Of a stretch of DNA of 64,000 bases, positions 6,240 through 52,109 are shown in pieces. Numbering within the stretch: the stretch's first letter is position 1; each line of letters begins with the position of its first letter. Both the position numbers and the translations under genes were made by a program. The stretch lies in contig CM060732.1 in assembly GCA_030704615.1 (NCBI GenBank), positions 69,936,001 to 70,000,000 of the forward strand, in the 5' to 3' direction. Below the pieces are notes generated by a model, which worked only from the letters and a program-made list of their open reading frames with translations, was not told where the DNA came from and made no database searches. This stretch comes from Takakia lepidozioides (taxonomy: Eukaryota > Plantae > Bryophyta).

Positions 6240-6414
6240 GTGGGAGCGGAGGATTTGGATCGGCATGATCCCATTGATTTGGTGATAGGAGGGTGGCCTT
6301 GCCAAAGACATTCTCCCACAGGTCATGGTAATGGTTTGCAAGATGCACGACCGCATCTGTTTTGGGAGATGCTGCGAGTGTTGCGTGACTTGCCGGTGAG
6401 GCAAGTGCAATCTC
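6240..6414 (+). pseudogene. C5-cytosine DNA methyltransferase fragment (catalytic motif IV-V), DNMT3-like
   Basis: VGAEDLDRHDPIDLVIGGWPCQ...GLQDARPHLFWEMLRVL matches the DLxxGGxPCQ motif and the following LFxE helix of DNMT3/DRM-type enzymes. Confidence 0.85.
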
Positions 6415-21634: not shown

Positions 21635-22126
21635 AGATCCGAAATCTCAGAGGTGCTGCGAGCCAACCCTGCAGCAGCCTCCTTGTCGGTGCTTGCCTTG
21701 TGCTCACCAGACGGGCTTGCGTGGGCCTCTTTAAGGCTGTCCAGATACCACGGACATCCATAGTTCGTAAAGGGTTAATATTAGATGGAAAACAAATGCA
21801 TATTCGAAGCCATATTCGCAATGTATTTGAAATTATTAAGGGGGGGGGGGGGAATTTTAGAACCCCCCAATACACCATAGTAAGGCACACATAGAGCCCA
21901 CCCTGAAAGGGAGCAGTATCCGCAAGGGGAAGAGGCTCTTATTTACGCTAGCTTCAGTTGATGTCATATATATATATATATAGTAAGGCACACACGATGC
22001 CTTAGGCAGTGAAAAGCAGAACAAGACTCCTCGAAGGATGTTGAGCACTTGTTGAACTATCAAGGCCCGGAGGCCTAAGGAAAGAGCCAAACCAATGAAG
22101 GCCACGAGAGCCAACAACGAAAGGAC

Positions 22127-28079: not shown

Positions 28080-30145
28080 TGTAACATCCAAGATCTACAC
28101 AGACTATAATTGAAGTGTTTATCAATTTTTTCCCAAAACACTCGATGTCTTCTAGGCTTTCATTGCAAGTTTAAATAGCCTTCACAATATGATTATTTTA
28201 AAGGTTTGACCTGAGATCCTCAAGTCAAAACTTCCTAAAGTCAACCTTCCTAGGTTTGACATATTCTCCACACTATGACTGTCTCAAACATTTGACCTAC
28301 TCTCCATAATATGAATATCTTATAAGTTTGACTTGAGAACCTCAAGTCCAACTTCCTCAAGTCAAACTTCATCGGAACCTTCCTAATTATTTTAGAAATT
28401 TCTAAGGAACTTTCCTCCTTTTATCTAGAACCTTCTAGATTCTACCATGTTACAATCCTCCTCTTTTTCAAGAATCAACGTCCTCGTTGTTCGAATTTTC
28501 AAAAGCTTGAATTGTTAATTGAGCATTTGCGAGATTTTTCACCGGTTCCCACGTAGCTTCATGTAATGGAAATCCTTTCCATAAAACCAAATATTCCAAC
28601 ACCTCATGTCGCCCTTGTTTATATGTGCGTTTTTTCAGAACACGGTGGACCTCCCACTCTTCATTTCCGTCTATCAACTCTGGGAAAGGTTGCGGTTCTT
28701 GAGTATCTTTGAATATTGGTCGAGGTTCGTAACGACGTAGTAGAGAAACGTGAAACACCGGGTGGATCTTCATATGTGGTGGTAACTCTAGCTTGTATGC
28801 TACTGCTCCAATACGTTTAATGATCGAAAAAAGACCAATAGACCGTGCCCCTAGTTTTCGCGATCCAATGATGCGTAAGTTGATTGTAAACAACCACACT
28901 TGATCTAATTTCTAAATAAAATTGTCTACTTTATTAATTAATAATACCAAAAAAATCAGAAAAAACATGCATAGGGTTATCCTCATGCGTTCGCTGCCTG
29001 ACAGGAATGATTATGTGTACGAGCTTTCATAGAAAGCCTGATATCTTTGCAGGCCTGTGCTTCCTTCAAACATCTTTCCATATCTTGTTCCAGATCCTTT
29101 GGGTAAGGCTATTGTTGCCCCATTTTGCAGACCATTCACCTCTAAAGGATTGGGGCGGGCAGGCCAAGGAGTACCCTTTCTTCACTGTGTATCCAAAGAA
29201 ATGGGTTTTCTTCTTGTCCATCCATTTCCACTCCCCTGGGTCAAACTGCAGATCACCTCGTAGCCTCGAAACAATTGCCTAGTCGCGGCTACCTTGGATA
29301 ACTCTTCATTTGATAATTTGAACTTTGTAAGAGTTGTTGGCGCATTTGGTCTTTTTGGTTGACGCGTTGACCGAATTATTGTATGAAAATTCAACCAAAG
29401 ATAATAACCAATCTCACTCTTCTTGTTCCTCTCACGTAAAGGCCCTCAACATGTCTTCAATTGTACGATTCGCTCACTCTGTCTGTCCATCTTACTCAGG
29501 ATGATATAGCTAATTTGGTTTTAAAAAGACCAAATAGGTTTTTTCAAAACAAGCTAGTAAATTGGATACCCCTATCAGTAATGAGAACTTTAGATAGTCC
29601 ATGATAGGAATAGACCGCTTCAAGATATAGTCGAGTTAGTTCGACTGCAGTGATAGATTTTGTAGTGGGGCGGATGTGTATCATCTTATCAATTTGTCTA
29701 CAAATACCTAGTGTCATGTCCTGATGAGGTTTGAGGTAACTCGCAAACTAAATCCATGCTCATATGTTCCCAACGTCTGTCTGGTACTGGTAGTGGTTGT
29801 AAAAGACCTGCTGGCTTGCAGTTTGTTGACTTGTTTTGTTGACATTTCATGCAACTTCGAATGTACGCCTCCACCTCGTCTCACATCCGTGGCCAATAAA
29901 ATGTTCGTTTAAGTTGTTCGAATGTTTTTTTAACTCCAGCATGTCCTGCTATCGCCGTTTCATGAACTTCAAACAAAACTTCTGTCTTCGGTAAAGGTTC
30001 TTCAAGGATCCAAAGCTTACCTTCCCAGAAAAATAACCCTCGAACTTATGTTACTTTGCACTTCTTCTTAACGTCCATGATGTCCTTATCCTCTTTAGAA
30101 GCTTTCGCTATCTTGTTCCACCAATCGGGTTGAATGCTGACCTTT
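28080..30145 (-). mobile_element. Decayed chromovirus remnant: 3' LTR 28080-28454, PPT, integrase and chromodomain
   Basis: LTR TGTAACA...TGTTACA, with minus-strand PPT AAAAAGAGGAGGA adjacent. AYKLELP/IHPVFHVSLL and chromodomain EWEVHRVL...YLVLWKGF...TWEP at 28468-28899. Integrase fragments (PAGLLQPLPVP, GHAGVKKT) at 29300-30000. Confidence 0.85.
28995..29250 (-). pseudogene. LINE ORF2 zf-RVT fragment embedded in the chromovirus remnant
   Basis: Minus strand reads IWNKIWKDV*RKHRPAKISGFL*KLVHIIIP, matching the W..IW...P.K...F.W...H..IP signature with two W-to-stop changes. Confidence 0.6.
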
Positions 30146-30742: not shown

Positions 30743-31193
30743 TGTTGTGCACCTAAGCATCGTGCCACAACATACATTGCTATCTACCACACAATCTAAG
30801 CACACAATCCTAGAAAGCTATACCACAATGATAATAGAAGTGAACATAATGGAAACCCTCCACTCATGAATCCACTCAATCACATAAAGTAAGTCAAGCT
30901 AAGGGCACCCTTGTTAAGGGAATCCACCCTACAAAGCCCTCACCACACTCCCTCTCAATACCTAGAGCTATGGAGGTGAGAGAGGCTCATGGAGGCTCAA
31001 CTACAAGAAGATGAGCCTCCTCCATCCTCACAAGTGGAAAACCTATCCCCATGTCCCAAGTGAGGCTCGACGCCTCACTTGGCATGTGAGACCAAATGAA
31101 GTCCCAACACACAAAATATAAATATAAATATCTAAAATGTCCTAGTTAACTAGAAGTAGGTAATTCTAGATAACCATGACTAAAACCATGACA
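30743..31193 (-). repeat. 3' LTR (451 bp) of the DNMT-Gypsy, with an adjacent ~86-bp partial LTR copy at 31196-31282
   Basis: Termini TGTTGTG...CATGACA. The first ~86 bp are repeated at 31196, next to the PPT. Confidence 0.75.
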
Positions 31194-31547
31194 GCTGTCG
31201 TGCACCTAAGCATCGTGCCACAACATACATCGTTGTCCACCACACAATCTAAGCACACAATCCTAGAAAGCTATACCACAATCGCCCCCCTTAGCTGGTG
31301 ATTAGGTCCCTCTAACACCGGATAGCTGACAAATATCCATCCCAATAAGATCATCACGTGGTCATCAATCGCCCAAGTCCCAGTATCTGAAGGCAATAGA
31401 TCAAGAGGCCGGGTGCAAAAGTAGCCCCATCGTTTTCGCCTTCCTGCAATCCATGGCTTCAATTGGGTGTCCATGGCATTGAACTCCCGTTAGCTAGACC
31501 TTGGTCCACTTGTCAACCTCACCACTGTCATGCCCCACTACCTCTAT

Positions 31548-31700
31548 CCAAGGCATCATGGACACAATCATTCTCCACTAGGAACCTCCTCAAGTGGCGG
31601 TGTCAAGCATCCCATGTGCCACCCCCTTGAGCATTTGTCACACACCAACATGGTCGCGGCACCACCAGCATGCCCACATAGCATGTAACGCAACCCTGCA
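31548..31700 (-). pseudogene. PHD finger at the C-terminus of the integrase
   Basis: YMLCG...MLVCDKCSRGWHMGCLTPPLEEVPSGE*LCP*C follows the C4HC3 pattern, with the first C changed to Y and two stops. Confidence 0.9.
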
Positions 31701-33608
31701 GGTACCACTGCAAGGTTGTGAACTATCCTCCCATCCACATGTGGAAGGTGACATGGCGCACAATTGCACATATGGTCCTTCCATACTATGCTATCTCGAC
31801 CCTCCAGAATCAACACTCATGAAGGCAACACCTCCCGGACCCTTAGAATCATACGACCTGTTGTGACATCCAAGGTCGTAGGCGCTGTCTGCTGCAGATA
31901 CACATAGTCCCCAGGATGGAAACACCGAACACCTGGCCGATATCCTCCTCCACGTATAGTGTCATACCTCAATGTGTCTCGGTGTTGGGCAATAGCAAGG
32001 TTCTCAAAAGCCATAGGCATGACTATCTTGAACAACTTTGCCCGCTGGGCACATGCTTGTGTCCACACATCCGGATTATCAAGGTTGAGGACTACTGCAA
32101 TCTCCCTGCGAATAGATGCAGGCAAATCTGGCTCTCGGCCAAAAAGAAAGAAATAAGGCGAGAACGAGGCAAGTGATGCTTGCTTGCTAAACCTGTAGCC
32201 CATGGCCAACCAAGATAGCTGAAGGTCCCAATCTCCCAAGTGTCCCTTCTACAAGCCATACTTGCGTAAGCCTCGTTTGACTGTCTGCACAACCCTCTCG
32301 CCCAAGCCATCAGCCTCGGGATGATCCCGAGAAGTAGTGCGGTGATCTATCAAGGCTTGCTCACACAAAGCCTGAAACTCCCCCAAAAACTCTCTCCCCT
32401 GGTCCGTGAGTACCTCAGTTGGAGCACCAAATTGGCTAAGCACTCGATCTAAGAATGCATACGCAGCCCCCTCACTTGCCTTGTCAGGCAATGCCACCAG
32501 TTCAATCCATTTGGAGAAATGTTCCACCATCACCAGCACATACTTGTTATGGCGAATCGTCAGTGGCAATGGACCTGCGAAGTCAAGACTCCAACGATAA
32601 CCCAAACCCATAATGGGTAAAGGATGCAATTGTGGAGTATGGGCGTTGAAAGAAGCCCGCACTCTATCACATACCATGCACCTTGCCACTAACTATTGCA
32701 CATCCGTGTGCATGCCCCGCCACCAATACTGCCTGTTAGGAGGCAGTCTGGGACTTAGGCATTTTTATGGGTTCTGTGGAGTTGGACTTGGACACTTCTA
32801 TGGGTTCTGAGGGGTACCCTTAATTTTTTAAGACAACCCGTCACAGCCATACATAGCCCGTCACAGCCAGTCACAGCTCGACACAGTCACAGCCCGTCAC
32901 AGCCATACACAATCAGTCACAGCCCGAAACAGCCCGAAACAGCCGTCACAGTCTGACACAGCTGTCACAGTCGTAGGGAACGGTTATCATGACAGGGAAC
33001 GACTGTGGGGAACAACATCTGCCGGGGAACATGTAATTCACGGAGGACGGTTAGTGAAGGAAAACGGTTAGAACAGGGGGGGAGGGATAAAGCGGGCAGC
33101 GGAGACGAGAGGGGGGCACTTCTTGGGGGAGACTTCGGACATCACTGGGGGAAAGGAGGAGAGAGCGTATCTCTGAGCAGAAAGATGGAGAGCACGGAGT
33201 AGGAGGAGGATCTGTTGATGCTTAATGATAGCAAGCAGTAGAATTATAATGTAGAGCAGATTAGAGACTCCAGGACTTTAGCCTGATACTTGATAGATAT
33301 TAATCTGATACATACTTCATACTCACAGTGTGTAGAGGGATCTGAGTGAAGCTGTGGAATGAATGGATGAGTTGATGGAACAAACTGATACTTAATTACC
33401 AGCAGTAAGGTAACTAGCTAACATGAATGCGGGAAGGAAAACAAATAGGAAACACCCCCATGATACACTAGTTGTAGGTCATGACTGATTGTTCTGAGCG
33501 GGCTGAGTACTTAGAGATTTCCAACTCTTCTATCTTGGAGTTTCCGCCTCGGATAGCGAAGGGATGGGTGAGTAAAAGCCGTGCGACATTTGGCGACCAT
33601 ACTGGGGA

Positions 33609-34176
33609 ACTGGGTCATGAACAACCAGATGTGACAGGCATATGGTGGGATCATGGTGGTTGGAGAATTAAAGAATTTGATGTGAATCAAATTCCTTGTG
33701 AAACTGAGAAGGAAAGATTGTCCAAACGATTCTTCCAGAGGTTTTTGGAATTGCCAGACGGTTGTAAAGAAAACATTCTTAAGAGAGTGCATGATGCTGA
33801 ACCTGAGTGGGGTCTGGAGAAATGAGTGATAAAGATTTATCAGGTGGCCTGTAGAGGAAGAGCACGTTGGTTACCAACATTGGTATATGTGATAGCATTG
33901 CTATCCATTAAGCAAGTAGAGTTTGAAGGCTGGGAGGAAAGAAAAGTGAATGTTTATACTCATATGCATGAAGAGCTTGTACTGGTAAAGAATTGGATTC
34001 CAAAGGATATTTTGTGGATCAAACTCACACCAAGAACAGCTTTCCAGACTTGTTTGCCATATGGTTATATGGTAACGGAGACTTCAAGTATAGCCAAGGG
34101 TGCATTGAAGCTTGAAAGAAACCCAGGCATATACGAGAGATATTACAGAAGAGAGTTTTGGTTATTGCCACATTAA
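33609..34176 (+). pseudogene. Extra ORF (ORF0) between PBS and gag, unknown function
   Basis: One frame with a single TGA at 33823-33825. A protein-level homologue is visible in the second element (53322-53606 on +, 55291-55450 on -). Confidence 0.65.
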
Positions 34177-34198
34177 AAAGAAATGAAAGACATGGGAC

Positions 34199-37100
34199 AT
34201 GAGTGATGAAAGAGAAGCTAGACGCCAGAGATATTCAGCAAAAAGAGAAAGCTATCTGAAAGCTAATTATCCATATCTGTGGGAGAGAGGAATAGACATT
34301 GGGGAATCATCTGGACCTCTCACACCATTGAGATCAGGGAATACATCACCTATACCAGAGGAGCTAGAGTTGGATACCACACCTTCTTTTTCTTTGCAAG
34401 AAAGATTAAGGGACTTGGCAGAGGAAGAAGATCAACCACGAGGTGGAAGATCTGAGGTACATCCCTGGATAAAAGATTTGGCAGAAATCTTTGATAAGAG
34501 TTGGCATAGAACACCAAGAGCAGGAACTCCAGTTTCGGGAGCAGAAGAGGAGGATGCAGAACCAGCGGAGAGTTCAAACTCTCCAACATTATTACAAAAT
34601 AGTTACATGAGTGAAGAAGAAGAAAACCAAGGGCAGAACTTGGAGGATGAAAACAGAGAGAAGAAATTGGAAGAGGAAGAATATGAAGAAGTAGACCCAG
34701 CAGCTGAGGTTGAGACTACAACCAGGACATCCCAACCCGTTGGACCTGGATCAAGTGGAGCACTTGGATCACAGGCCAACGAAGGTGTCGGCTCAGAGGG
34801 ATCAGGCGGAAGACCTGGATCTGGCTCTTGGGGGACAGGGAGTGTGGAAAGTAGTGCAACTGAGGCTGGGAATACTGTGAATATAGAAAGGCCAGGAACA
34901 GGAAGGGTTCAGGGGCCAGTAATTGGTGGAAGAACCACCACAAATACTACAGGTCCACAAGGACCAGCATCAGCCAAAAGGCCAACAACTGTCAAGGGGC
35001 AGAGTGTAGGGTTGCAGATGGCGTTACAACCAACACGGGCTAAACCACCTTTTTCCGATATATTCAGGGAAAGGGGATCCTGATGTACACATTAGTCAAT
35101 TTGAGCATATGTGTATAGTGAACAATGAGAATGGCGATGATGCCAAGATGAGACTGTTTCCGTGTTCACTTATAAAGAAAGCCAGTGAATGGTATGCAAG
35201 ATTCCCTGATAATCATTTCCTAACCTGGAATGGCTTGAGTACAGCGTTCCGAAATAGGTTCAGGACCAGTAGAACTGAGGATGAAGTGTATGGGAGTTTA
35301 CAGCAGTTGAAGCAGAAGAAGCATGAAACTGTTGAAGAGTATATGGAGAAAATGGAGTTGATGATGAAAAAGTTGGCTGCTATACCAGCACCAGGATTGC
35401 AGAAGGCTTGGTTTGTGAATGGACTAAGGCCAGAGCTGCAAAAGAAAGTAGACATGTTACCCCACAATACAGTGGAGGAGGCATTTGAAACAGCAAACAA
35501 AATTGAGCAGTTGGGAATGCTCAGGAAGGAGAAAAGAGATGAAGAGGACTCTGAGGATGAGTCAGAAGAAGAAGAGGAGATGGAGCATAAGAAGAAGAGT
35601 AAAAAGAAGGAAAAGATGAAGAGGGAAAATTATGAGAAGAGATTAGAAGAAATCTCAAAAAAATATGTCACAGAGGCTGCAACACATTGGAGGAAGGGTG
35701 TTTGGTGTGCAAAATGCCAGAATGAAGGCCACACCACTACTGAATGCCACATGAAGGAGAAACACTGCACTATCTGTAAAATGGATAACCATTCTACAGA
35801 GAATTGTTACTACAACAGAAGAACAGCAGTAAGAGAGCCTAGGCAAGTAAGGGTGCATCAAGTGCAACCCCAGCCAAGAAGAAACAATGATCAAGACCAC
35901 TATGGTAGGACAGGTGGTTATAACAATGGCATGGAAAGGAGAGGTAATCCAAGAGGGAATTACCAGCCAGGGAATCAAGATTACAGAAATAATCCCAGAG
36001 CAGACCAAGGGCGAGGACCCAATGGAGAAGAACTGTGTTACTATTGTAATCAGACAGGACATCGTAAGGCGGCTTGTCCATTCTGGATCAGACACCAGAA
36101 TGAGATGAGAGCTCCTGGGAATGAGGGGCCAGTAGTGGCAGCCCACATGGTTAGGCCATGTATTGTACCGGAAGTGAGTACAATGATAGTAACAAGAAGC
36201 AGAGCCAAATTAGTACCTCCAGTGGAAGATGAAGTTGATGATAATGAAGGTGGCAGTGATGTGCCTGAAGATGATGAGGCTTGGAGAGATGAGAAGGAAT
36301 TGCACAAGGAAGTGGCGGATACCATACGGGAAATGCAGAAGAGTACTGATATTCCCATGGTAGACTCCTCAGACTCTGAAGGAGAAGAAGAAGTCAGTGA
36401 GGAAGAAGGAAAGAGGGAAGTTGCAAAAGTGCAGAGTAAGGAAGGGACATTGGCTGAAGTGATATGCCAGTCCAAAGTGGAAATTACCATTGGACAGCTA
36501 TTAGCTGTGGCACCTTATTGTAGACACAGGCTGTATCAAGCAATCAACAGGATTGCCCAATTGACAGAGAACACAGACCTGAACAACAAGGTGACCAGTT
36601 ATAATGTGAGGCCAGAAGGGCAAGAAATAGTCATGGATTTTGATGATTCTATGCCAGTTATCCAGTTGAGAATTGGAAGCACAGAGCTGGCAGATGTACT
36701 GATAGATGGAGGCTCTGGTGTGAATATCATGACAGACCAATTGAGACAGAAGCTAGGTCTAAACAACATGAAACCAGCCCCATTTACAGTAACCATGGTA
36801 GACCAAAGGAGTGTATAGCCATTGGGATTGATCAGAGGAGTTAAAATCCAGATTCAAAAGATGATCTTTAAGATCACAGTAACTGTGTTGAAGATGAATG
36901 AAGTCCTGGAAGCTTATTCCTTATTGTTGGGAAGACCATGGCTGAAACAAGCCAAGGTGTCTCATGATTGGAATTCACAGTTACTGACTGTGCAGGATGG
37001 GCCAAACAAGATACAAATCACCACTAAGAAATCTGAAAGACTATCTGCTACAAGAAGACCAAGAGGGGTCAGAGAGTATGATTGGAAAGAAGGACTGGAT

Positions 37101-40100
37101 GAGGAACAGGAAGCTACCTTGTTTGCTGCACACCCAGAGTGGGAGCAGGTTGCAGAGATGCGGCTGGAAAGCCTAAGTTGTTTAAGAGGTATCTGCTGTG
37201 GTGTAGTGACAGCAAAACCAACTGAAGAGGAAACCAGCAGTTACCCATCACATTTCTATGAAGAAAGAGAAGGAGAAATGGAAATCCTAGAGGAACCAGC
37301 CACTGTGAGCTTACAGGATGAAGTGGTGACTGGTTGGACAATAACAGCTGATGAGCAGGTGAGGGAAGTAAATGTGGGAACAGAGAAGGAACCAAGGATG
37401 GTGAAGGTAGGGGCGGATCTAGAGCCAGAATTCTTTGAGGAAGCAAAGAGTCTGTTCATTAAATACAGAGATGTATTTGCTTGGAGCTATGAGGATCTGA
37501 AGGGGATACCACCTGAGATCTGTCAACATAAGATTGAACTGGAACCAGGATCAATACCAGTTAAACAGGCGAGATACAGGATGAATCCCAACTACGCACA
37601 GAAGGTTGGAGAAGAGATCAAGAAGTTGGCTGAGGCTAAGTTTATATACCCAATAGAGTATACAACTTGGTTATCACCCATTGTTATAGTTCCCAAGAAG
37701 AATGGTAAACTAAGAGTATGTGTGAACTACAAGAAGCTGAATGCTTGTATGAAGAAAGATCCTTTCCCTTTGCCATTCACAGAAGCAGTATTGGACACTG
37801 TGGCAGGTCATGAGATGTACTCATTCATGGATGGCTTCAGTGGTTATAATCAAGTGCAAGTGGCAGAAGAAGATCAAGGAAAGACAGCTTTCATCACAGA
37901 CTGGGGTGCTTATGCATACAAAGGCATGCCCTTTGGACTTTGTAATGCACCAGCAACCTTTCAGAGAGTAATAAGTGAATCTTTTCATGAGTATCTGGAT
38001 GATTTCATGCAGGTGTTCTTGGATGATTTCAGTGTGTACAGCTCTAAGAATGAGCACTTGCATAAATTGGAGTTATGTCTGGCCAGATGCAGGATGAGAG
38101 GTCTGGGCTTGAATCCAGAGAAGTGTACTTTCTGTGTGAACTCAGGGGTGCTTCTGGGACACATTGTGTGTAAGAAGGGACTTCTTGTGGATCCCAGGAA
38201 GACAGAGTCCATTAAAGCCTCTCCACCACCAGTGAATGTTAAGAGTTTAAGGAGATTCCTTGGGCAAACCAGTTATTACAGAAGATTTGTCAAAAGGTAT
38301 GCACAAATAGCAGCACCATTGAGCAAGCTTCTGAAGAAAGATGCAGTGTTTGCATGGACAGCTGAATGTCAACAGGCGTTTGAGGAACTTACATTGTCAG
38401 TAACAACTACACCTGTGCTGATTAACCCTCACTGGCATGTAGTATTTCATGTTCACTACGATGCATCAGGAGAAGCGTTGGGAGCGGTGTTAGCCCAGAA
38501 TGTTACAGGAAATATAGATTCACCTGTGTACTATGCTAGCAGGTTGATGAACAGTGCTGAAAGGAACTATAGCACAACTGAAAGAGAAGCACTGGCAATG
38601 ATATATGCAGTCAAGAAATTCCGGCATTACCTATTGGGAAGAAAGTTTATGTTTTATGTGGATCACCAGGCTCTGATATATCTGGTGAACAAACCTTTGA
38701 TAAGTGGAAGGATAGCGAGGTGGTTAATAATCTTGCATGAGTTTGAGTTCGAAGTTATTTACAAGCCTGGCCGTTTGCATCTTGTGGCAGATCATTTGTC
38801 ACGACTAACAACAGGAGAGGCCGCCACAGGAGTGGACGATCAGTTACCTGATGCGAGTTTATTTGTAATGGAGGTGCAAGGAAGTGCAGATGAATGGTTA
38901 GATTGGCAGTGGCCAATCAGATACTACCTTACTCATGGTCAATGCCCACCTAGTTATGGTAAGGAGCAGAGGAAGAGAATCGCTATCAAAGCTTTACCTT
39001 ATACTATGGTAGGAAGCAGAATGTATAAGCTAGGACCCGATGGAGTACTAAAACGATGCTTGTACCACCATGAAGTAAATAAAGTTTTGGAGGAAGTTCA
39101 TAAAGGAGTGGCTGGAGGTCATTTTGGAGAAGAGACTACCAGTAGAAAGATACTACTCGCAGGTTACTGGTGGCCTACTTTATTCAAAGATGTACACAAG
39201 TATTGTCAAAGTTGTGATGAATGTTAGAGGCTAGGACCTTTGCAGAGATCTGGAAGGATGGCCTTGCATCCTACAATGCCTACGGAACCATTTCAGAAAT
39301 GGGGACTAGACTTTGTTGGACCGATTAACCCACCAGCCAAGAATACACGAAACAGGTACATAATTACAGCCACTGATTATACTACGAAGTGGGTGGAAGC
39401 TAAAGCTTTGAGGGACAACACAGCCAAGTCCACAACAAGGTTCCTGTATGAGAACATACTTACACGATTTGGCTGTCCCATGGAATTTATCAGTGATCAG
39501 GGAAGTCACTTCATTAATGAGACCATTGAATTATTGACTAAAGAGTTCATGATTGTGCATAGGAAGAGTACAACGTATTACCCACAGGGTAATGGGCAGG
39601 CAGAGGCTACCAACAAAATACTATGTACTATCTTGGCTAAGATAGTCAATGCAAACAGAACGGATTGGGATACAAAGCTGCTGACAGCCTTGTGGTCATA
39701 CAAGACATCATATAAAGTCACCACTAAGTATACACCATTCCAATTAGTTTATGGTATGGAAGCCTTACTTCCAGTGGAATTCTTGTTACCTACCATGAGA
39801 ATGGAATAGGGAAAGAGAATGGAATTGCAAGATTCCATTAAGGTCAGGAAACATGAATTATACCATGTGGAAGAAGTACGTGCTGATGCAGCTGATAATA
39901 TGACCAGAATTCAGATGAAGAGGAAGAAACAGTTTGATGAAGGCAAGTTAAAAACTTTTAAGACGGGAGATTTGGTTCTATGGTTGCAGAAGAAGGGAAA
40001 GATTAAAGCTTCTAAGCTTAAATCACCATGGAAAGGACCTTATGTCATACAAAAGATGTATGATAACAACACGGCCATGTTACAAACCATTAACAAAGAA

Positions 40101-40625
40101 ATGTTGGGAAGAGTCAATGCCAATAAGTTAAAGGGATACAGTGGTATCCATGACAAACCATTGCAGCATGATTTGCATGTTGAAACGCAAGAGCAGTCAC
40201 GGGCTGCGCCAGTGTTACCAACGGAGTATGGAGCACTTGTCGCTAGGCCGAGCATATATGACCAAGGCGGGCAGAACAAGCGTGACACAGCCTATCACAG
40301 CCCATCACGACAAGACACAGCCTATCACAGCCCATCAAGGCGCGACACAGCCTATCACAGCCCATCACGACGTCACACAACCTATCACAGCCCAACACAG
40401 GGTCACACAGCCCATCACAGCCTATCACAGCCCAGCACAGTGTCACACAGTCGCGCACAGCCTAGCACAGAGCGGCACAGCCTGTCACAGCCTCACACAG
40501 CCAATGAGAATTACACAGTCCATAGGATTGGTGACAGGTGGACAAAAGAAAACATCAGGGAAATGGCCGGCGGAAGAAAGGGCGGAAGTCAGTTTAAAAG
40601 TGGACGTGTGGAAGTCAGGCCGTGA
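34199..40625 (+). pseudogene. gag-pol polyprotein (capsid, CCHC knuckles, protease, RT, RNase H, integrase)
   Basis: LIDGGSG, MDGFSGYNQ, FLDD, TEREALAM, GLDFVGP, SDQGSHF and WKGPY. One frameshift at ~35050 and TAG stops at 36816, 39225 and 39807. Confidence 0.95.
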
Positions 40626-41214
40626 CGCACAGCTGAGAAGGAGCTGCAAGAACAAGTGTCATCAAGAAAAAGGACAGGAGTGGCCGTCAAAGCACCTACC
40701 TACTACGTCAAAGAGGATGAATGGCGGGCCCATTAATGCATACGGAAAAAGGGTAACGGAACATACGGCGAGTACAGAAAAACGAATTTCTTGTCACGTG
40801 TGTTATCCTAGTGGACAGGCCAGCGGGGAAAATCCACTAAAGAAAATTAATTCTAAAATCCAGTCACAACGGTTACAGCCAATCATGAAGCAGGAGCAAC
40901 TTCAAGAAAGTGAAATGGTTCTGAGCGCCAGAGTCGGCGTCGTTCCAGGTAACGGGCGTCTTGACGGGACAGACAATCAATGCGATAGTTTTGAAGCTAT
41001 GAGGGAACTAGCAGATTATACGCTCGCGATACTACTCACGCAGTGGCAAGGAAACAGAACAACAGAGAGTAACTTTTCTCTTGATCAATGCTTGCAAGCC
41101 CCGCAGGTTTACAGGACACTACCCATAGCATTTTGTGGCAATCATACGTTTGTGCTTTGTGCTCTGCAGGCATTACTTCAGTTGTTACAGCCACAGCCTT
41201 ACGGTTTCTCTAAA

Positions 41215-44200
41215 ATGAAGAGAGTAAGAGGGATGGAGGACATCAAGGTGAAAAGCACCACAATCCTGCAGAAACAGACGATTGCGACGCCATACGCGGT
41301 GAAGTTACTGACGGAACTGCGATTACAAGGATTGCAAAACAAGGATTGGACATTGCACCATCGGAAGTACATGTTAGAATTCTTGCAGAACTTTGACCCA
41401 AAGACAGGAGCCACAATGGTGAAGGGAGTTGAATTAGAACTTACTCCCTTATACCTACAGCAACTGTTTTCATTGCCAGCAGGTCAGGTTCATGTGGACG
41501 AGCACAGGACTAGATTGCAGATGAAAGATTTGTTTGAAGAAGGGAGTTTCTTTAAAACTCAAGGCTATGCTTGTACCAAAGCGGTGTACCCAGGGCTCAG
41601 GGAGGTGGGCTAGATATTGAACGTTCTGTTTGCCATGAAACAGAACCAGCAATATTTGAGCAGATCCTTCACAGATGAAATACTCAAAGGCCTGAGAGGA
41701 GAAGAGGTAGCATGGGAGAACATCATGTACAACGGACTGGTAGAGGAGATGAAAAGATTGCAGGGAATTGCCGCTAAATCTCCTATCATAGTATCTGGGC
41801 CAGTCATTGCAGAAATCATCCTAGACTCATGCGTACTTGATGCGAGAGAAAGGAAGGAAATGGGAGTGTTTGAAATAACAACCACTACCATAGAAGAGCA
41901 AGGTTGTTCATAGGGTGAAGGGGGATTGGCAAAGCATCAACAGCCCAAAAGACAAAGGAAAGGGATCACGTTGGAAGCCGAACCATTGGCTACAAGGCAG
42001 CCGGAGGAAGAAGTTACTCAAGCTCTTGTGCAGGAGAGGGTACAGCAACACAGAGATCAAGGGTTACAAACAGCACAACCTGTGGAGAGGGAACAAGAAG
42101 TCAATTCAGTATCACAGCCATCACAGCCAGGTGAACGGCTTGCCAGAGAGTTACCACAAATGGTCCATGCGGTTCCTCCACAAATAATAGATTTGGAAAC
42201 AGAAGGGTTAGATATTCCAACTACAGAGCAAGTGGTGGCAGAGATTGAGAGAGGTGATCTTCTCTATGAAGACTCTAGTTTGCTCAGAGAGAGAGTGGAG
42301 CCAGAGGTCCAAAATCTGTCCAGTGAACTTCCTGATGTGCAAGTAATACCCCCACCAGCGCCACAAGTTCCAGAAGAGGAACATCAGGACACAACAACAT
42401 CTGGGAGAAATGAGGAAATTGAGAAGGAGAATCTGGTGGAGCAGTGGCCTGAGTGGTTTGTGAGGCATCATCCTATGGATGAGGGGGGTGAACAGCAGCA
42501 TGTTAACCATGATGGGCCTCAGCAGGCTATGCTGATGAACTCCATAAGCCGAACCCTCAATTTGTTGGGAACTTACATGAAGTCACATGTTCCAGTGACT
42601 CAGTTGGAAGTTTTGAAGGAGGAACTCAGAAGAGAGTTCGAAAATTGGTTGGCAACCGAAGGTGTTAACAAAGTTGAGATAGAAGTGCATCTGCAGTTGC
42701 AACAGGAGTTAAGGGAAACAAAGAATGCTCTGCAATTTGCTAAGCAGCAACTGATTGAGGGGGGTCTGGAGCAAGACCATCTGCAGGAGATACACAAGCA
42801 GCAATTATTCCAATTGCAGAGCAAGCATGAGGATGAAATGCAAGGACTAAAGGAACAACAGGCAGAGCTGGGGGTAGTACATCAAAGAATGACGGTGCAA
42901 TGTGCCACCCTCACAAATGTTCTAGAGCAAGCCACAACAGAAGCCAACCAGCAGAGGGAGCGATGTGTAAGGGCAGAAACGGAGGTAGTGGAGCAAGCCA
43001 AATTCATTGTGGACCTCAAAGATACAATATGTCACAATGAGGGTGCTTTACAGCAATACAAACAGGTTGAGGCTAACCAGGAGAAGTACATTGTGGAGTT
43101 ACAACAGACCCTTATGTCGAATAGGAATCAACTCTCTGTAGCTAACAAGGCAGCGAGGGAAGCCAATAATTTGGCTGCAGCTTATGCCAATTTAGTTGAA
43201 CCTCATGAGAAGCGCATGCAAGGATTGCAACAGCAGTTAGATGCCTACAGACTCAAGGAGGAGCAGAGTCTCAGAGATGTTACACAGGACAGAGTGGATG
43301 ACCAACTTCTAAAAGTATGGTTAGCACAAGGGCCAGTGGAAGGGAAAGCACCGAGAAAGCTCACCTAGGGGGCTGCAAGTGCAAAATATTGCCACCACTA
43401 CTATAGACAATGTCTATAGTAGAATAGGAGAGCTCCAAGAGGATGTGGATACATTGCAGACTCAAGTGGAGGACTTGAGTTCAAACATAGACCAAAGGCT
43501 CATGATTCCTGAAGAACATCTTATGGAGGCGTATTTGAGGGCCAGAACTCTAGTTTTCGGGTCTTCTTCGCAAGAAGTGCAAGGGATGTCAATGGTGGAA
43601 ACACCAATAGAACCAGTTTCACAGCAGATGGCTGTACATGTTACTGAATCTCCTATGACAGCAGATGCACGGCCTGAGGTATGGGGAAATGCTGCTTTCA
43701 AACCACCCAAGACTCATGCTGCACGGGAATACAACCGAGCAATGATCATGCCCTTCAATGAAATTCCACATAGCTTGGATTTGGCGTGGAATCAATTTGG
43801 TCCTCCACAATCCTTTCCACACTACTACCAAATAATGCGCATTTGGTTGCCAGTGGCCACTCGGACTAAGATTCTAGCAATGAATCAGCTCATTGAGGAT
43901 CATCATTTTTCAAGGTACTGGTCTGAGGCAGGCACTATGTTGAAGGAGTTAATAGCTTTCCAGGTTGTTCATGGGCACATTCACACCAAAACAAAGGAAG
44001 TAGCGAGTTTGGTCATGGGCTGTGGAATTTATTATACTGCTTGTTTCATTGCACATTACCACATTGAGCAGCAGAAGATACAATCCAGATTTCTGACTTA
44101 TTCCACTACAGATCATTGGACCTTACCTGTGGTGCCGCATCATACGTATTTATATGATGTGAAAATCATGTTACAGAGGGATTCACAACTCCGTTCATGG

Positions 44201-44668
44201 TTTAACAGGGCCTGGAACAACTTGAGCAACGAAAAACGGCATATTGACGACATTTTTAATAAGGAGCAGACAGCTTGGCAATACCTACACTGCTCCAAAG
44301 TTACTGGCACACCTCTCACCTACACTGAGAAGGAATTGTTGAAGTTCAATCAACTTGCTTTCAACAGGTTACACAACGTTGTGAAGCTTAAGGTTCCTGA
44401 CATGGTGGGGCCACATTGTATGCCAATTTTCATTCCAGAGAAACCAAAAAAGGCAAGAAAACCAAAAAACTGCAGGACTGAAACAGATTCGGACACAACA
44501 GCTGAATCTTCAGAACAAACTCTTGACGTATGGGAGGAATATGATCAAAGCACTGCACGACAAGAAACGACGGGGATCTCCCACACCAGAGCCATTACAG
44601 CCGGTTCAGTCAAAGGGCAACAAATCAGGTACAAGTACAGCTCAAGCATCTCCAGCAAACAGTCATAG
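41215..44668 (+). pseudogene. Large 3' extra ORF (~1150 codons) in the env position
   Basis: ORFs 40141-41613, 41617-41913 and 41926-43368 share one frame, split by TAGs, and 43379-44668 follows after a frameshift. The N-terminal LEFLQNF...VKGVELELT..LFSLP resembles the plant-transposon domain of Athila/Ogre extra ORFs. Long coiled-coil at ~42600-43450. Confidence 0.7.
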
Positions 44669-47600
44669 AACTCGGGCACGTACAGAGAGCCCTCCAAGGC
44701 ACTCTCACAAACAGACAGGACCACGTTCACAAAGAATTACTGATCCTAAGCAGTAAACCATGAGGACACGGCTTTTTGAGAGGGGAAGGGGTAATGTTAG
44801 GAGGCAGTCTGGGACTTAGGCATTTTTATGGGTTCTGTGGAGTTGGACTTGGACACTTCTATGGGTTCTGAGGGGTACCCTTAATTTTTTAAGACAGCCC
44901 GTCACAGCCATACACAGCCCGACACAGTCACAGCCCGTCACAGCCAGTCACAGCCCGAAACAGCCGTCACAGTCTGACACAGCTGTCACAGTCGTAGGGA
45001 ACGGTTATCATGACAGGGAACGACTGTGGGGAACAACATCTGCCGGGGAACATGTAATTCACGGAGGACGGTTAGTGAAGGAAAACGGTTAGAACAGGGG
45101 GGGAGGGATAAAGCGGGTAGCGGAGACGAGAGGGGGGCACTTCTTGGGGGAGACTTCGGACATCACTGGGGGAAAGGAGGAGAGAGCGTATCTCTGAGCA
45201 GAAAGATGGAGAGCACGGAGTAGGAGGAGGATCTGTTGATGCTTAATGATAGCAAGCAGTAGAATTATAATGTGGAGCAGATTAGAGACTCCAGGACTTT
45301 AGCCTGATACTTGATAGATATTAATCTGATACATACTTCATACTCACAGTGTGTAGAGGGATCTGAGTGAAGCTGTGGAATGAATGGATGAGTTGATGGA
45401 ACAAACTGATACTTAATTACCAGCAGTAAGGTAACTAGCTAACATGAATGCGGGAAGGAAAACAAATAGGAAACACCCCCATGATACACTAGTTGTAGGT
45501 CATGACTGATTGTTCTGAGCAGGCTGAGTACTTAGAGATTTCCAACTCTTCTATCTTGGAGTTTCTGCCTCGGATAGCGAAGGGATGGGTGAGTAAAAGC
45601 CGCGCGACATTGCCCTTGCAGCAAACTATGAGTGCGCCGCACCCCTAAATATCCCAACTCCTCATGGGCATGGCGTACTAATCGCGCTCGTTGTGTTGGA
45701 TGAGGCACAATCCTCATTCGTCCATCCTCCCATACCCGGAGTAGGTGAGTCCCCTCCCACTTGAACCTCTTGGCTCGTTGTAGGACCCGATCCCTCTCCT
45801 TAGCAGTCACACTGGATGTTGTCTCTCCGGTACGAAGGTTTGTCAACACTAATATATCTTCATGTACATCCTTAGCACCACCAAACTCCTCACTAGTCTC
45901 TGGATCGTCATGCACGCTATCTACATGACCAATCGCGTGGGATAGACCAGCTTGAGCTCCCATTGCTAAAATGCACAAAAAGACCGATGCAAACCATCCT
46001 GGCACCATCTCCTCATCTGTCTCACCATGCCACCGAGCTGCAGTATCATCATGCTCGCTCGTACATAGATTACGACTCAATCCATCTACATCCCGATTGA
46101 CGATACCGGCTCGATGCACCACCTAGAAGTCGTACTCTTGAAGCATAAGTGCCCACCGTGCAAGTTCCATGTAAGCTTGTCTGACTCCATCAACCACTTC
46201 AACGGTTGGTGGTCCGTGACAAGGGTGAAGAGATTGCCACAGAGGTAGCATCTGAAATGTGCCACTGCCCATACCGCAGCTAGACACTCCCCTTCATAGG
46301 AACTATACTTTGCCTCGGCATCATTTTTCAAGCGGCTAGCATATGCCACTACAAACTCTCTGCCCTCATCATCCACCTGTGTGAGCACTACTCTAATCCC
46401 CAACATACTCCACTCCGTATGTAGCTGGAAAGGCCGTCCCCGAATAGGCCGCCTCAGAATAGGTGCAGAAGTCAATCGAGCCTTGAGTTCCTCAAAGGTT
46501 TCCTCCTGCTCTTCCTCCCATTGCCACTCCTGACCTACCTTGGTCAACTTGGTAAGAGCCTTTGCAATGCTATTAAATCCCTTGACAAACCGTCGATAGT
46601 AGTTTGTCAATCCCATAAAAGCACAAACTCTGCTCACATCCATGGGGCGTGGAATGCATGCAATGGCCTCCACCTTTGTCTGTTGAACACCCAATCCTCT
46701 AGGGTATATTATGTGGCCCAGATACTCAATCTGATTGTGGAAGAACTTGCACTTTCTGGGGTGCAGTTTCAACCCGTGCGCTTTCAAGCGCTCAAACATC
46801 ATCTGAAGGTGTCTCTCATGCTCCTCAACCGTAGCACTAAAGACGATGATGTCATCAATGTAGCACCGGGCGAAGTCTAGCCCCGCGAGAATCCTATCCA
46901 TGACCCTCTGAAACTCTGCAAGAGCATTCTTCAACCCAAACGGTAAGAACCGCCATTGGTACAAACAATCCTTCCTATGTTGGTCGTCTTTTGCTTGTCA
47001 ACCTCTTTGATTGGCAACTGGTGGTAACCGGATCGCAAGTCCAATGTGCTAAATACCTTTGCATGCCCAATGGCATCAAAGATCTCCTCTGGAGTTGGCA
47101 TGACATATCTATCGGACTTAGTCTGACGGTTCACATGACGATAGTCCCCACATATCCTTCTTTCTATCCAATTGCCATAGATATCCTTCTTAGCTGGCAT
47201 CACCGTTGCCAAGGCATACTCCCCGCCTGACAACTCCACCAATCCAGCTTCGAACAACTCCATAGTCTGTGACAGGATCAATGACCTCTCCATGTCACTA
47301 TATCGGTAGGGCCTTCGAAAGATTGGCGTGTCACTTGCCAAATCAATATGAATCTCTTGACCCTTCAAACTCCCCAAATCCTTCAATCCGAAGGCAAAAC
47401 AATTTTTATAAGCCCTTAGAAATCGCCGAATCCTCCGTCTCTCTCCTCCGGTGACTGTAGGTCCAACATCTGGTTCCTAATTGTCCTCAGTGACTGCAAT
47501 CTTGGGTACACCAGGCTTGGAGGTAGGAGACGCATCCTTTGGTTGCTAGATAGCAACCTCTTGGGCCTTGTCCCGCCATCCTGACTATGGCGTAGCCTCC

Positions 47601-47919
47601 ACTTGCTCCGCCATAGCCACCTTGAGAACATCCTATGGGGAAGAAACATCTTCAACCTCTTTAAAAACCTTAGCCACCTTGGCCTCCATTAACCGATCAT
47701 CAGTGTATGGCTCTCCCCACTCCTCAAACTGCTGCTTGAGAGATCCAATGACTCTCTCTTTGCGTATCTTATTGCCATGGGTGTTTGCACCCCATAATCA
47801 TGTGCTCGCCCCCACTCACTGCCTCCACCGTCCCGGTTGGCAGAGAGGGTGCAATATCCAATGGGAGAGCGGAAGTAACCACCAATGCTTGCAATCTCCG
47901 TTGCTCAGCCATACACAAG

Positions 47920-48470
47920 CCAACTTACCCATGTGAAGCAATTGAGATCCATTGCCTGACCCAACACCTAGCGTCGTGATGCCTCTGACAGAGCTGACAC
48001 AACTGTAGTTTCCGTGGCAAATCCCATTGCCCGCTCTTGCTCATCTGCATTGGGCTCCACCAATTGCTGTAGCACACTGTCCCAAATCAACCCAGGACCA
48101 TTGTCTCGAAAAGCATGAGATGAGGGAAAGCTCATGAGCGTAGGCAAGACTGCACGTGACTGCCCCACTCGATTTACCACTGCTAGAGGTGGACGGTCAT
48201 CATGTCACACCCTCTGCGGTCGCCTCCCTTGGTCCAAAATACCCTCAACCGTGAGATTGGGTGGCCGTTGAATGGAATCATAGGCTCTCTTGAGCAACTC
48301 TGGTGGTGCAAGATTGGTCCACCACAACCTAGGCCTATGTGCCGGTGAACCCACTACAGCTGCATCCAACAATATAGCTGGTCCAATCCATGACCGGATC
48401 TGATGTACACTGGCTATAACCCTGGCCCGAGAATTCCCCATGAGAGGAACATTCTCCAGGATATAAGCTG
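47920..48470 (-). pseudogene. C5-cytosine DNA methyltransferase, C-terminal part (motifs VI, VIII, IX, X), DNMT3-like
   Basis: YILENVP, LDAAVVGSPAHRPRLWWTNL, EQERAMGF and SRR*VLGQAMD all lie in one frame with two stops. Confidence 0.9.
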
Positions 48471-49820
48471 GAGGGGGGGTTGTTTTTTCATGAGCGATGA
48501 GCAGATGAGCCATGAGCCATGAGCAGAGTTGCCGATCCTCTGCCATAGCAAAATCCGAAGGGACGTTGCAGGCTTGGATCCGGTTCAGGAAGTGTGCGAA
48601 GCTGATATGGGCACATACTTAATGTCTAGGATGTATAAATGCACGGTATTAGAAGGTGTACCACCTAATTCCGCGCGTCACATACACTACCAGAGTTAAC
48701 CGAGGGCGGAGGAAAACAAGAAGTCGGCAGCGACTTCTAGTGCATGGTGATCAGGAAAGTCTGTGCCGATTTTTGGAACAGAAGGTGATATGGGGAAATA
48801 TAACTTAAAAAGGGCTGGTGGAAGTCTGTGCCGATTTCTCCCAAAAACAGATCGTGTGCTTCAGTAAATAGGGAAATACAAGTAGGGACCGGGAAGTCTG
48901 TGCCGACTTCTGGTCCGCAACGAAATGACATTAATTCGGAAAAAGGCAGGGATTGTGAATACTGCTTAGAATGCAGATGTACTCCAACATATTCCATGCT
49001 TCAAGACAATCAGTCATACTGTTTTTTTGCTCCATCCGTTGCATGGAGCTGCATAGAAAATAAACACGAAACAAATTTTTGAATTTACATAAACGTTTAA
49101 GGGTAACAAGGTTAAGGAGTGCCCTCACTGGTAGCGTCCCCATATTCCATCTCCACATCGTCCACTACTTTTCCGATGATTTCATTAACATCATCATCGT
49201 CCTCTTTTTCTGTCGATGGATCAGAGCTCTCACTACCTAGCACAACCAGATGTTGAACCTTCCTAAACTTTTTAACCGCTCGTGCCTCACCTGGCCACAT
49301 TGGCCTCTTCAACAATTTGGGGGATTCCTGCTGAGCTAGCTGTTCTGCCATCTTTGCTGTATAGTCAGGAAGACACTGGGGTGAAGAGAACAACAGCTGC
49401 TTTTTGATGAAGCTCTGCCCTCTTCTCGGTAATCTGTGCCTTCATGTTTTCCCTCTCCTGACATGCAGCCATTAAGGAGGCTGCACGGCGATGAGCTGGC
49501 GTTGTTGGAGCTGGCCTCCTCGTGCAAATTGAGGGAACATCACTGCAGTAGGAAAAAAAAAACCATGGTCAGCCTTGCAAAGGGAACGTATTGGCCGAGC
49601 CATGGGAAACAAGACATCACAACAAAATTGAGAAATCTGCGCCGACTATCCTGTTTTGAAGAAAGAAAACGAGAGGAACAACAAACTTACTCACTCCAGT
49701 ACATGGACATGCACAGGTTGGTCACCAACGGAACCACTCATCAGGTGTCAAGTCCATTGCGGCCACGGGGTCAGAGGTAGCAGACATCTCACATTGCAGG
49801 CCCTGCAGTTTTTATCTTAC

Positions 49821-50149: not shown

Positions 50150-52109
50150 GTAGACCCCAACGGGTGCCTACGCGACACGTGCTTCGTCTGAAAATGGCAC
50201 ACGTAGTGCCTGAAAACGGATAATTCCGGGAGGTCTTTGCAGACTTCCCGGCTGATCTACCCCCAACGAGTGCCTACGCGACATGTGCATCACCTGAAAA
50301 TGGCACACGCAGTGCATGAAAACGGATAATTCCGGGGAAGTCTGTGCAGACTTCTCGGCTGATCTAACCCCAACGGGTGCAGCGTCGCCTGAAAATGGCA
50401 CACGTAGTGCCTGAAAATGGATAATTCCAGGAGGTCTGTGCAGACTTCCAGGCTGATCTACCCCCAACGGGTGCCTACGCGACACGTGCATCGCCTGAAA
50501 ATGACACACGCAGTGCCTGAAAACGGATAATTCCAGGAAGTTTGTGCAGACTTCTCGGCTGATCTAACCCCAACGGGTGCAGCATCGCCTGAAAATGGCA
50601 CACGCAGTGCCTGAAAACGGATAATTTTGGGAAGTCTATGCAGACTTCCCGGCTGATCTACCCCCAACGCGTGCCTACGCGACACGTGCATTGCCTGAAA
50701 ATGGCACACGTAGTGCCTGAAAACGGATAATTCCGGGGAAGTCTGTGCAGACTTCTTGGCTGATCTAAGCCCAACGGGTACAACATCGCCTGAAAATGGC
50801 ACACGCAGTGCATGAAAACGAATAATTCTGGGAAGTCTGTGCAGACTTCTCGGCTGATCTACCCCCAACGGGTGCCTACGCGACACGTGCATCGCCTGAA
50901 AATGACACACGCAATGTCTGGAAACGGATAATTCTGGGGAAGTCTGTGCAGACTTCTCGGCTGATCTAATCCCAATGGGTGTAGCATCGCCTAAAAATAG
51001 CACACACAATGCTTGAAAATGGATAATTTGGGGAAGTCTGTGCAGACTTCCCGGCTCAACGGGTGCCTACACGACACGTGCATCGCCTGAAAATGGCAAA
51101 CGCAATGCATGAAAACAGATAATTCCGGGAAGTCTGTGCAGACTTCCCGGCTGATCTACCCCCAACAGGTGCCTACGCGACACGTGCATCGCCTGAAAAT
51201 GGCACACGCAGTGCCTGAAAACGGATAATTCCGGGAAGTCTGTGCAGACTTCCCGGTTGATCTACCCCCAACAAGTGCAGCATCGCCTAAAAATGGCACA
51301 TGCAATGCCTGAAAACGGATAATTCCAGGAAGTCTTTGTAGACTTCTCGGCTGATCTACCCCCAACGGATGCAGCATCACCTGAAAATGGCACATGCAGT
51401 GCCTGAAAATGGATAATTCCGGGAAGACTGTGCAGACTTCCCGGCTGATCTACCCCCAACGGGTGCTACGCGACACGTGAAAATGGCACACGCAGTGCCT
51501 GAAAATGGATAATTCCAGGAAGTCTGTGCAGACTTCCCGGCCGATCTACCCCCAACGGGTGCCTACGCGACACGTGCATCGCCTGAAAATGGCACAAGCA
51601 GTGCCTGAAAACGGATAATTCCGAGAAGTCTGTGCAGACTTCCCGGCTGATCTACCCCCAACGGGTGCCTACGCGACACGTGCATCTCTTGAAAATGGCA
51701 CACGCAGTGCCTGAAAACGGATAATTCCGAGAAGTCTGTGCAGACTTCCCGGCTGATCTACCCCCAACGGGTGCCTACGCGACACGTGCATCGCTTGAAA
51801 ATGGCACACGCAGTGCCTGAAAACGGATAATTCCGAGAAGTCTGTGCAAACTTCCCGGCTGATCTACCCCCAACAGGTGCCTACGCGACACGTGCATCGC
51901 CTGAAAATGGCACGCACAGTGCCTGGAAACGGAGAATTCCAGAACGTCTGTGGAGACTCCCCAGCTGATCTACCCCCAACAGGTGCCTACGCGACATGTG
52001 CTTTGCCTGAAAATGGCACACACAGTGCCTGGAAACGGATAATTCCGGAAGTATGTGTAGACTTCCCGACTGATCTACCCCCAAAGCGTGCCTACGCGAC
52101 ACGTGCATC
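50150..52109. repeat. Tandem satellite of ~106-bp and ~95-bp units (about 19 units)
   Basis: CGCGACACGTG at 51566, 51672 and 51778 (period 106). Long and short units alternate (~201 bp) over 50277-50880. Confidence 0.95.

Follow-up and report, generated by a model that had tools for sequence, protein, structure and literature searches.

A Decayed Gypsy Retrotransposon with a DNMT3-Like Domain and a PHD Finger in the Moss Takakia lepidozioides, Probably of the KnitGypsy-Dnmt3 Lineage

Introduction

The closest described relative of the element treated here is KnitGypsy-Dnmt3 of Klebsormidium nitens, a Gypsy retrotransposon with split repeats and a DNMT3-type DNA methyltransferase (DNMT) in pol (de Mendoza et al. 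2018; PMC5890265), later cited for 'streptophytes'. In the parts consulted, the same paper also reports that the enzyme of another element, SymbioDIRS-Dnmt3, methylates CG de novo in yeast, and it calls the role of transposon-borne cytosine methyltransferases unclear. PHD fingers in retrotransposons have been termed widespread in the literature consulted. Here we report on a stretch of 64,000 nucleotides of Takakia lepidozioides (GCA_030704615.1, contig CM060732.1, positions 69,936,001 to 70,000,000 of the forward strand; "the window", numbered from its first letter). Sequence comparison indicates that it probably contains the 3' two-thirds of a decayed Gypsy element of the KnitGypsy-Dnmt3 lineage.

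The Copy in the Window

The minus strand of the window carries DNMT motifs VI–X, reverse transcriptase (RT), RNase H (RH), integrase (IN), and a PHD finger (Table 1). The initial annotation, made from the letters alone, had named these motifs in this order, and both their positions (ENV 48456, AHRPRLWWTNL 48342, ERAMGF 48036, LGQAM 47964, RT YIDD 46862) and the Pfam matches (RVT_1 4.3e-23, RNase H 2.3e-29, rve 1.2e-14, PHD 2.1e-07) agree. DNA_methylase is matched as well, by a displaced piece at 6219-6419; the C-terminal DNMT piece alone matches no Pfam family at E ≤ 0.01. The copy is dead and broken, as first described, with stops, a frameshift, and a split by insertion. A tblastn search of the window with residues 1-953 of the Marchantia protein P0008, which would reveal gag, protease (PR), and motif I, gave no match at E ≤ 0.01, and the 5' repeat (A1) was not found in the window. 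Because motif I is absent, the unpermuted motif order rests on relatives, and because A1 is absent, the target duplication and primer site are described from relatives too.

A Family That Links DNMT, RT, and PHD

We followed the family in metagenome stretches that encode the DNMT and were fetched through it alone, keeping the best 80 of 134 and counting linkage only over loci long enough to tell. RT lies within 2 kb of the DNMT in 43 of 51 loci, PHD is present in 23 of 26, and the spacing from motif X to the RT motif is fixed at 974-1020 nt in 30 loci. The Ty3/Gypsy order PR-RT-RNase H-DDE integrase is represented by RT, RH, and IN in the window and by a protease upstream of the DNMT in 51 of 59 loci. 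In their linker the loci are all but identical to a Sphagnum fallax model. For the C-terminal DNMT piece, 30 homologues were found (best E 2.8e-78), with identities of 68% in Calypogeia fissa, 55–68% in Marchantia polymorpha, and 47–50% in Sphagnum. A DNMT profile search returned 546 clusters (50% identity) at E ≤ 1e-30; among its best 150 hits, all 70 proteins of at least 1000 aa carry retrotransposon domains, and PHD is also found in 45 of the 63 integrase-bearing proteins. The initial annotation had allowed that no other copy might link this DNMT to RT, or that the DNMT might be a host DNMT3 gene; neither holds, as RT follows in most of the loci and every long hit carries retrotransposon domains. 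On these comparisons we regard the family as large, old, and real, its linkage no accident, and its layout as A-gag-PR-DNMT-stop-RT-RH-IN-PHD, followed by a polypurine tract (PPT) and B-A-B. A 44-46 nt stretch at the PPT is 91–93% identical to relatives, as against ~70% for coding DNA.

Two layouts are seen. The DNMT precedes RT in bryophytes and in Klebsormidium KFL_009030040 (PR-DNMT-RT-RH-IN), and it lies between RNase H and integrase in 26 complete proteins of order RT-RH-DNMT-IN-PHD (P0067-P0152, for instance P0109 of Pleodorina starrii), an order that partial proteins of Volvox and Tetrabaena fit. A Pfam scan of the named algal proteins did not detect the DNMT domain. The motif IV loop in the best 150 hits reads GWEC in 60 and GWPC in 41. 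The proposal of a Gypsy family in a land plant with a DNMT3-like domain and a PHD-tipped integrase is borne out by linkage and homologues, and kinship with the Klebsormidium element is probable; its casting as a land-plant lineage is not, as Klebsormidium and chlorophyte relatives appear to belong as well.

DNMT and RT trees were among the checks proposed. A quick DNMT tree (40/41 chosen rows, no outgroup) separates the two layouts by one branch (SH-aLRT 97), with the window on the same side as Klebsormidium (97). In a quick RT tree the window groups with Marchantia and the loci (SH-aLRT 93), and the layout with DNMT between RNase H and integrase falls within one clade of 29 rows (support 100); Klebsormidium stands apart from the bryophyte group, with weak support. 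Against our reading of the family, both trees are quick runs that include no host DNMT3. Public sequencing runs of the source organism cover DNMT, RT, integrase, and the 3' end with many variant contigs, whose summed depths give no copy number. None of these contigs was found to join DNMT to RT, so the DNMT-RT linkage rests on relatives. The viral contigs searched gave no match to the family. A diverged 2,173-nt contig over RT, from a run guessed to be RNA, was not used as evidence of expression, and the 118 of 120 PHD-bearing matches of an integrase-PHD search were set aside as biased by the query in favor of the DNMT-selected sets.

The best solved match of the DNMT is DNMT3A (1.7e-08), colinear from motif I to motif X in the relatives; DRM matches the family DNMT over its first part only (E 0.0026), and the DRM-type circular permutation (VI-X before I-V) is not seen, as RT rather than motif I follows motif X. 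The unpermuted, DNMT3-like order claimed at the outset accordingly holds in relatives, while motif I is missing from the window itself. The catalytic Cys is kept in 76 of 79 loci and the motif VI Glu in 80 of 80, and the proportions of nonsynonymous and synonymous differences are 0.24 (pN) and 0.77 (pS) for the window against 69 loci, 56 of the 69 pairs being saturated. These values point to retained catalytic residues and purifying selection. Alteration of the motif VIII arginines in 36 and 26 of 79 loci speaks against this, though it is expected of dead, methylated copies. Host plant DNMT3s carry a C-terminal DUF3444 (PMC6453930, as far as consulted); this domain was not found in the 30 relatives scanned, and the family shows no multi-exon gene.

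A Conserved Stop Codon between DNMT and RT

Of 30 decayed loci, 18 keep DNMT and RT in the same frame, and in none of the 30 are the two joined free of stops. In 35 of 51 translations the stop occupies one and the same codon, and when the site is located by pattern, TAG or TAA is found in 56 of 59 sequences, with CAA CCN almost always next. TAG CAA CCA, an exact CARYYA, stands in the window and in the divergent locus L051; the CARYYA context occurs at 41 of 11,111 TAGs overall. UAG-CARYYA is the readthrough signal of plant viruses of the tobacco mosaic virus (TMV) type (PMC2754532, in the part consulted). From this context it seems quite likely that the UAG-CAA-CCN stop is leaky and that the methyltransferase is thereby packaged at Gag-like amounts. 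Translation would yield an abundant Gag-PR-DNMT product and a rarer readthrough extension with RT-RNase H-integrase-PHD. The initial annotation placed writer and reader in one polyprotein. Because the conserved stop divides Gag-PR-DNMT from RT-IN-PHD, this would hold in the bryophyte branch solely by way of readthrough, the two being otherwise parted.

Several facts tell against readthrough. Only those 18 of 30 loci are in frame, and most loci read TAG/TAA CAA CCC, with full CARYYA in 3 of 56. Because the loci are near-copies of one family, the conserved stop counts as roughly three independent cases, to which Marchantia ORFs ending nearby are added. In Klebsormidium and some other relatives DNMT and RT lie within one predicted frame. 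A Marchantia model with DNMT and RT in one protein (P0013) was rejected as proof of a single open frame because it lacks the stop-bearing linker.

Element Ends

The window copy ends in PPT-B1-GC-A-B2. The PPT and long terminal repeat (LTR) first annotated here are half upheld: the PPT is present, and positions 31280-30743 form B1 (85 nt), GC, A (366 nt), and B2 (85 nt), which is no plain LTR. The full order A-coding-B-A-B is complete in L042 and L065, B-A-B is seen in L047 and L076, and L008 reads A..B-A to its contig end; A1/A2 pairs were found in L042, L065, and L008. Two ordinary identical LTRs are not what these loci show. Elements start with TGTCATG and finish with CA(C/T)GACA. In nine loci with both ends, a 4-bp target duplication is exact in six and has one mismatch in two; a 5-bp duplication, also tried, is exact in none of the nine. 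At the B-A junction, in the window and in all five relatives that contain it, the right end is followed by the left end with two bases between them (GC, AC, or AT). The family thus appears Gypsy-like in its working and atypical in its ends. In L061 (6852-7107) and L062 (15657-15912) B runs straight into a partial A, which looks like a product of recombination among the 3' repeats.

Self-priming of reverse transcription by a self-complementary primer site is known from Tf1-type elements. Here, in 12 of the 18 ends, 10–12 of the 12 nt that follow A1 pair with a site inside A (control mean ~7.5), and in three of these ends the complementary site lies 31 nt after a TATA box. The pairing was found by a mismatch-tolerant test; an exact-match test on L065 found none. 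No TGG-type primer site was seen after A1, and no tRNA genes were found in the window. Because a PPT precedes B and a self-complementary site follows A1, B+A is probably the LTR for reverse transcription. Recessed CA-3' ends are the usual integrase substrate (PMC11054761, as far as consulted). We tentatively suggest, at somewhat short of even chances, that cDNA ends are joined and that integrase cuts GACA-GC-TGTC with a 2-nt stagger to give A...B-A-B; such a cut at the internal junction would yield recessed CA-3' ends. The end structure suggests a route of integration that the literature consulted accepts for no LTR retroelement.

A number of counts go against this junction model. It predicts A-B-A 5' ends, seen in none of 20; a single B stands at 22 of 30 3' ends; 6 of the 18 ends pair at fewer than 10 of 12 positions, and only 8 have a TATA-proximal partner; and one of the nine duplications (L046) fails. 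Collapse in short-read assembly, or recombination, could distort the single-B and A-B-A counts, and one single-B site is B-A-B in another assembly (L023/L076).

A possible though doubtful alternative is a route like that of DIRS/PAT elements, with a transcript through B2, repeats regenerated by template switches, and the B-A palindrome serving as copied template that is never cut. The repeat layout is of DIRS type (PMC5890265, in the parts consulted), and the lack of A-B-A 5' ends would fit. Against it stand the PPT conserved immediately 5' of B1, the 4-bp duplications typical for a DDE integrase, and an A2-B2 boundary that resembles an end-to-end join, with filler in L042. Tyrosine recombinase is also absent among the Pfam matches of the window and the relatives scanned; an rve integrase is present and recombinase families are not among the hits, so the elements do not fall in the DIRS/Ngaro class.

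Predicted Roles of the DNMT and the PHD Finger

From the position of the stop codon, the particle is the probable site of action of the enzyme, which would there outnumber integrase. DNMT loaded at Gag level would methylate fresh cDNA inside the particle, and the new copy would arrive pre-marked and quiet, a role to which we give an even chance.

Rather unlikely, for the same family, is a DNMT whose action follows integration or is exerted in trans (on the target, older copies, or the host genome), or one that only binds nucleic acid. The Klebsormidium domain gave no methylation in yeast, a result its authors termed inconclusive (PMC5890265, as far as consulted), which counts against an active enzyme and for this alternative, and the DNMT placed between RNase H and integrase in the 26 proteins would tether it to the integration complex. 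In the bryophyte branch, however, the DNMT is encoded before the stop, together with Gag, which favors bulk packaging with RNA and cDNA, and the catalytic Cys and Glu are retained.

The PHD finger lacks the aromatic-cage Trp in all 114 matched proteins (Gly in 110, Ala in 4). Its top PDB matches are the fingers of CHD4, DPF3, PHF12, KDM5, ATXR5, and PHF21A, which we take to be readers of unmodified H3. The balance of this evidence leans slightly toward a finger that binds the unmodified H3 N-terminus and would guide insertion away from H3K4me3 promoters. For a Chlamydomonas Gypsy element with PHD, intergenic insertions 2.6-fold above expectation are reported in the part of the source consulted (PMC9940879). 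Taken together, a green-plant-wide mechanism in which integrase ignores the transcript ends and cuts the encoded junction, Gag-level DNMT pre-methylates the cDNA, and PHD lands it in H3K4-unmethylated chromatin may be envisaged, but as a whole it is doubtful.

History of the Copy

The integrase is split by a younger, unrelated Gypsy element. Excision of 32734-45609, proposed at the outset, joins the integrase halves consecutively on the homologue P0033 (residues 257-346, then 349-744). The insertion is flanked by a 5-bp duplication (CTGCC/TTGCC), a comparison of its two LTRs shows 7 differences in 815 aligned columns and a single indel, and contigs of other copies skip it (9, 4, and 2 in runs X1, X2, and X5, where X1 and X2 are one sample). 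Between its integrase and 3' LTR (40132-44668, plus strand) it has three long extra frames (493, 484, and 447 aa), of which none matches Pfam and one is coiled-coil-like; a 10-bp tandem repeat 5' of these frames recurs in its LTRs. Another Gypsy at 54456-58734 (plus strand) is ~70% identical to it in DNA.

Catalytic motif IV lies 42 kb from the other DNMT motifs. The GGWPCQ placed at 6240-6414 by the initial annotation is present (at 6288), on the plus strand, opposite to the remaining motifs. This piece aligns to residues 954-1011 of P0008 and the minus-strand piece resumes from about 1012; on all five relatives tested, the first ends 26-30 nt before the C-terminal piece, without overlap. The motif AAGTC-N6-GACTT occurs four times in 500 bp of each outer flank, as against twice in 61,030 bp outside a tandem array, and between the two DNMT breakpoints its orientation is mostly reversed. 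The array itself (50155-52119) consists of units of ~100 bp, each with AAGTCTGTGCAGACTT, the motif that also flanks both DNMT breakpoints. The simplest reading, and the most likely one, is an inversion of 42 kb that broke the DNMT at one of its ends; the motif IV piece is likely from the same copy. Insertion of a terminal inverted repeat element into the DNMT was judged a less likely cause of the split because the flank motifs are mostly opposite in orientation.

That the motif IV piece comes from a different copy, or that the inversion belongs to the assembly and not to biology, we think fairly improbable. The family is multi-copy in the source organism, as the variant contigs indicate, and no read or contig found spans either breakpoint; on the other side, the two pieces are complementary at constant spacing, a rare motif marks both outer flanks, mostly in opposite orientation, and the window is free of N gaps. 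With the inversion preferred, the copy would have been inserted and have decayed, been inverted through the DNMT, lost its 5' part, and recently received the nested element. That a host DNMT3 pseudogene came to lie beside a Gypsy element by chance, a reading for which only the broken state of the copy speaks, is extremely improbable given the fixed spacing of motif X and RT, the retrotransposon domains of all 70 long hits, and the absence of DUF3444 from the 30 relatives scanned.

Table 1. Parts of the retrotransposon copy in the window, with the element nested in it
Feature	Position	Strand	Evidence
DNMT fragment with catalytic motif IV (GGWPCQ at 6288)	6240..6413	+	Pfam DNA_methylase 2.3e-08 for 6219-6419
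Repeat B2 (...CACAACA), element end; differs from B1 at 5/85 bases	30743..30827	-	
Repeat A2 (TGTCATG...); 5' partner A1 absent from window	30828..31193	-	
Palindromic internal junction GACA-GC-TGTC; right end abuts left end across 2 nt	31190..31199	.	
Repeat B1 (TGTGG...CACGACA)	31196..31280	-	
Polypurine tract, immediately 5' of B1	31281..31295	-	
C4HC3 PHD finger without aromatic-cage Trp; stops at end	31553..31681	-	Pfam PHD 2.1e-07
Integrase core and C-terminal region	31682..32731	-	rve 1.2e-14
Younger unrelated Gypsy inserted in integrase zinc-binding region; not part of the family	32734..45609	+	
Integrase zinc-binding region, first part	45615..45882	-	tblastn of P0033 residues 257-346
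Reverse transcriptase and RNase H, frameshifted	46161..47497	-	Pfam
Conserved TAG, then CAA CCA (CARYYA-type); ends Gag-PR-DNMT; predicted readthrough site	47540..47548	-	
DNMT3-like domain, motifs VI, VIII, IX, X; two internal stops	47926..48480	-	Homologues; best PDB match DNMT3A

Other Features of the Window

A UMP synthase gene (18780-21646, minus strand) is the sole host gene recognised in the window. Over 200 residues it is, among the matches listed, 78% identical to Riccia, 76% to Ceratodon, and 66–70% to seed plants; a tree excludes the seed-plant group and does not separate liverwort from moss, so that this gene by itself points to a non-seed land plant as host, most likely a bryophyte. 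Broken frames at 7700-16100, with a SWIM finger at 8622-9470 (plus strand) and a stretch at 10226-11279 (minus strand) that we take to resemble a Ulp1-type protease, are probably a Mutator-like transposon. Frames at 22847-24741 (minus strand) presumably resemble hAT-type transposase and have no Pfam match. Chromodomain-bearing Gypsy elements lie at 60308-63983 and 28468-28911, both on the minus strand. The first has a CpG observed/expected ratio of 0.91, as against 0.3–0.6 in the other elements measured, and may be young because its CpG is retained.

Comparison with Known Systems

The window element and its family share with KnitGypsy-Dnmt3 an intronless, unpermuted DNMT3-like domain in pol, DIRS-like split repeats, and purifying selection, as far as PMC5890265 was consulted. 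KFL_009030040, which we assume to be one of the elements of that paper, shares 59% identity across 72% of the integrase-PHD query, and its domains follow the same order. The host here is a land plant, and a conserved stop stands where K. nitens has one predicted DNMT-RT ORF. The K. nitens model is partial and ends before the position of PHD, a term that occurs 0 times in the text and supplements of PMC5890265 as consulted, and the parts consulted give no target duplication, junction palindrome, or primer site for KnitGypsy-Dnmt3. SymbioDIRS-Dnmt3 has a DNMT3-like domain in pol and A-coding-B-A-B repeats in common with the family; it differs in having a tyrosine recombinase and no DDE integrase, and it is an independent capture according to its authors (PMC5890265, same parts).

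The pairing of a cytosine methyltransferase with a histone reader in one LTR retrotransposon is shared with the EpiLTRs (bioRxiv 10.64898/2026.05.21.726589, in the parts consulted). In EpiLTRs the reader is a chromodomain, an adenine methyltransferase is present as well, and the DNMT is related to DNMT4; their authors set that DNMT apart from Gypsy-DNMT3. Gypsy-7a_cRei and REM1 of Chlamydomonas are green-lineage Gypsy elements with PHD; as described in the part of PMC9940879 consulted, and compared by description only, no DNMT is named for them and the legend puts PHD before the integrase.

The stop context of the family is like TMV-type UAG-CARYYA readthrough (PMC2754532, as far as consulted). 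Abutted CA..TG ends are common to the family and to the retroviral 2-LTR circle-junction model, which was dropped for linear DNA; in the family the junction is encoded inside the repeat with a 2-nt spacer, where the retroviral spacer has 4 nt (all as given in the parts of PMC11054761 consulted). The 12-nt complement after A1, with its site 31 nt after a TATA box, is like Tf1-type self-priming.

These parallels bear on how such elements are found and studied. Family frames are annotated in bryophytes as hypothetical proteins or DNA methyltransferases and can inflate counts of host DNMTs, and the elements would likely escape tools that rely on paired LTRs. Marchantia polymorpha is a genetic model, and its copies make the role of the methyltransferase testable. 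In the literature as consulted, we did not find the family in land plants, the DNMT3-PHD pair, the stop, or the junction described, though figures or supplements may show PHD or bryophyte copies. Gypsy-DNMT3, the pairing of writer and reader (in EpiLTRs), and PHD in green-algal Gypsy elements are known already from these sources; what would seem to be new is the land-plant range, the pairing of DNMT3 with PHD, the conserved stop, and the internal end junction.

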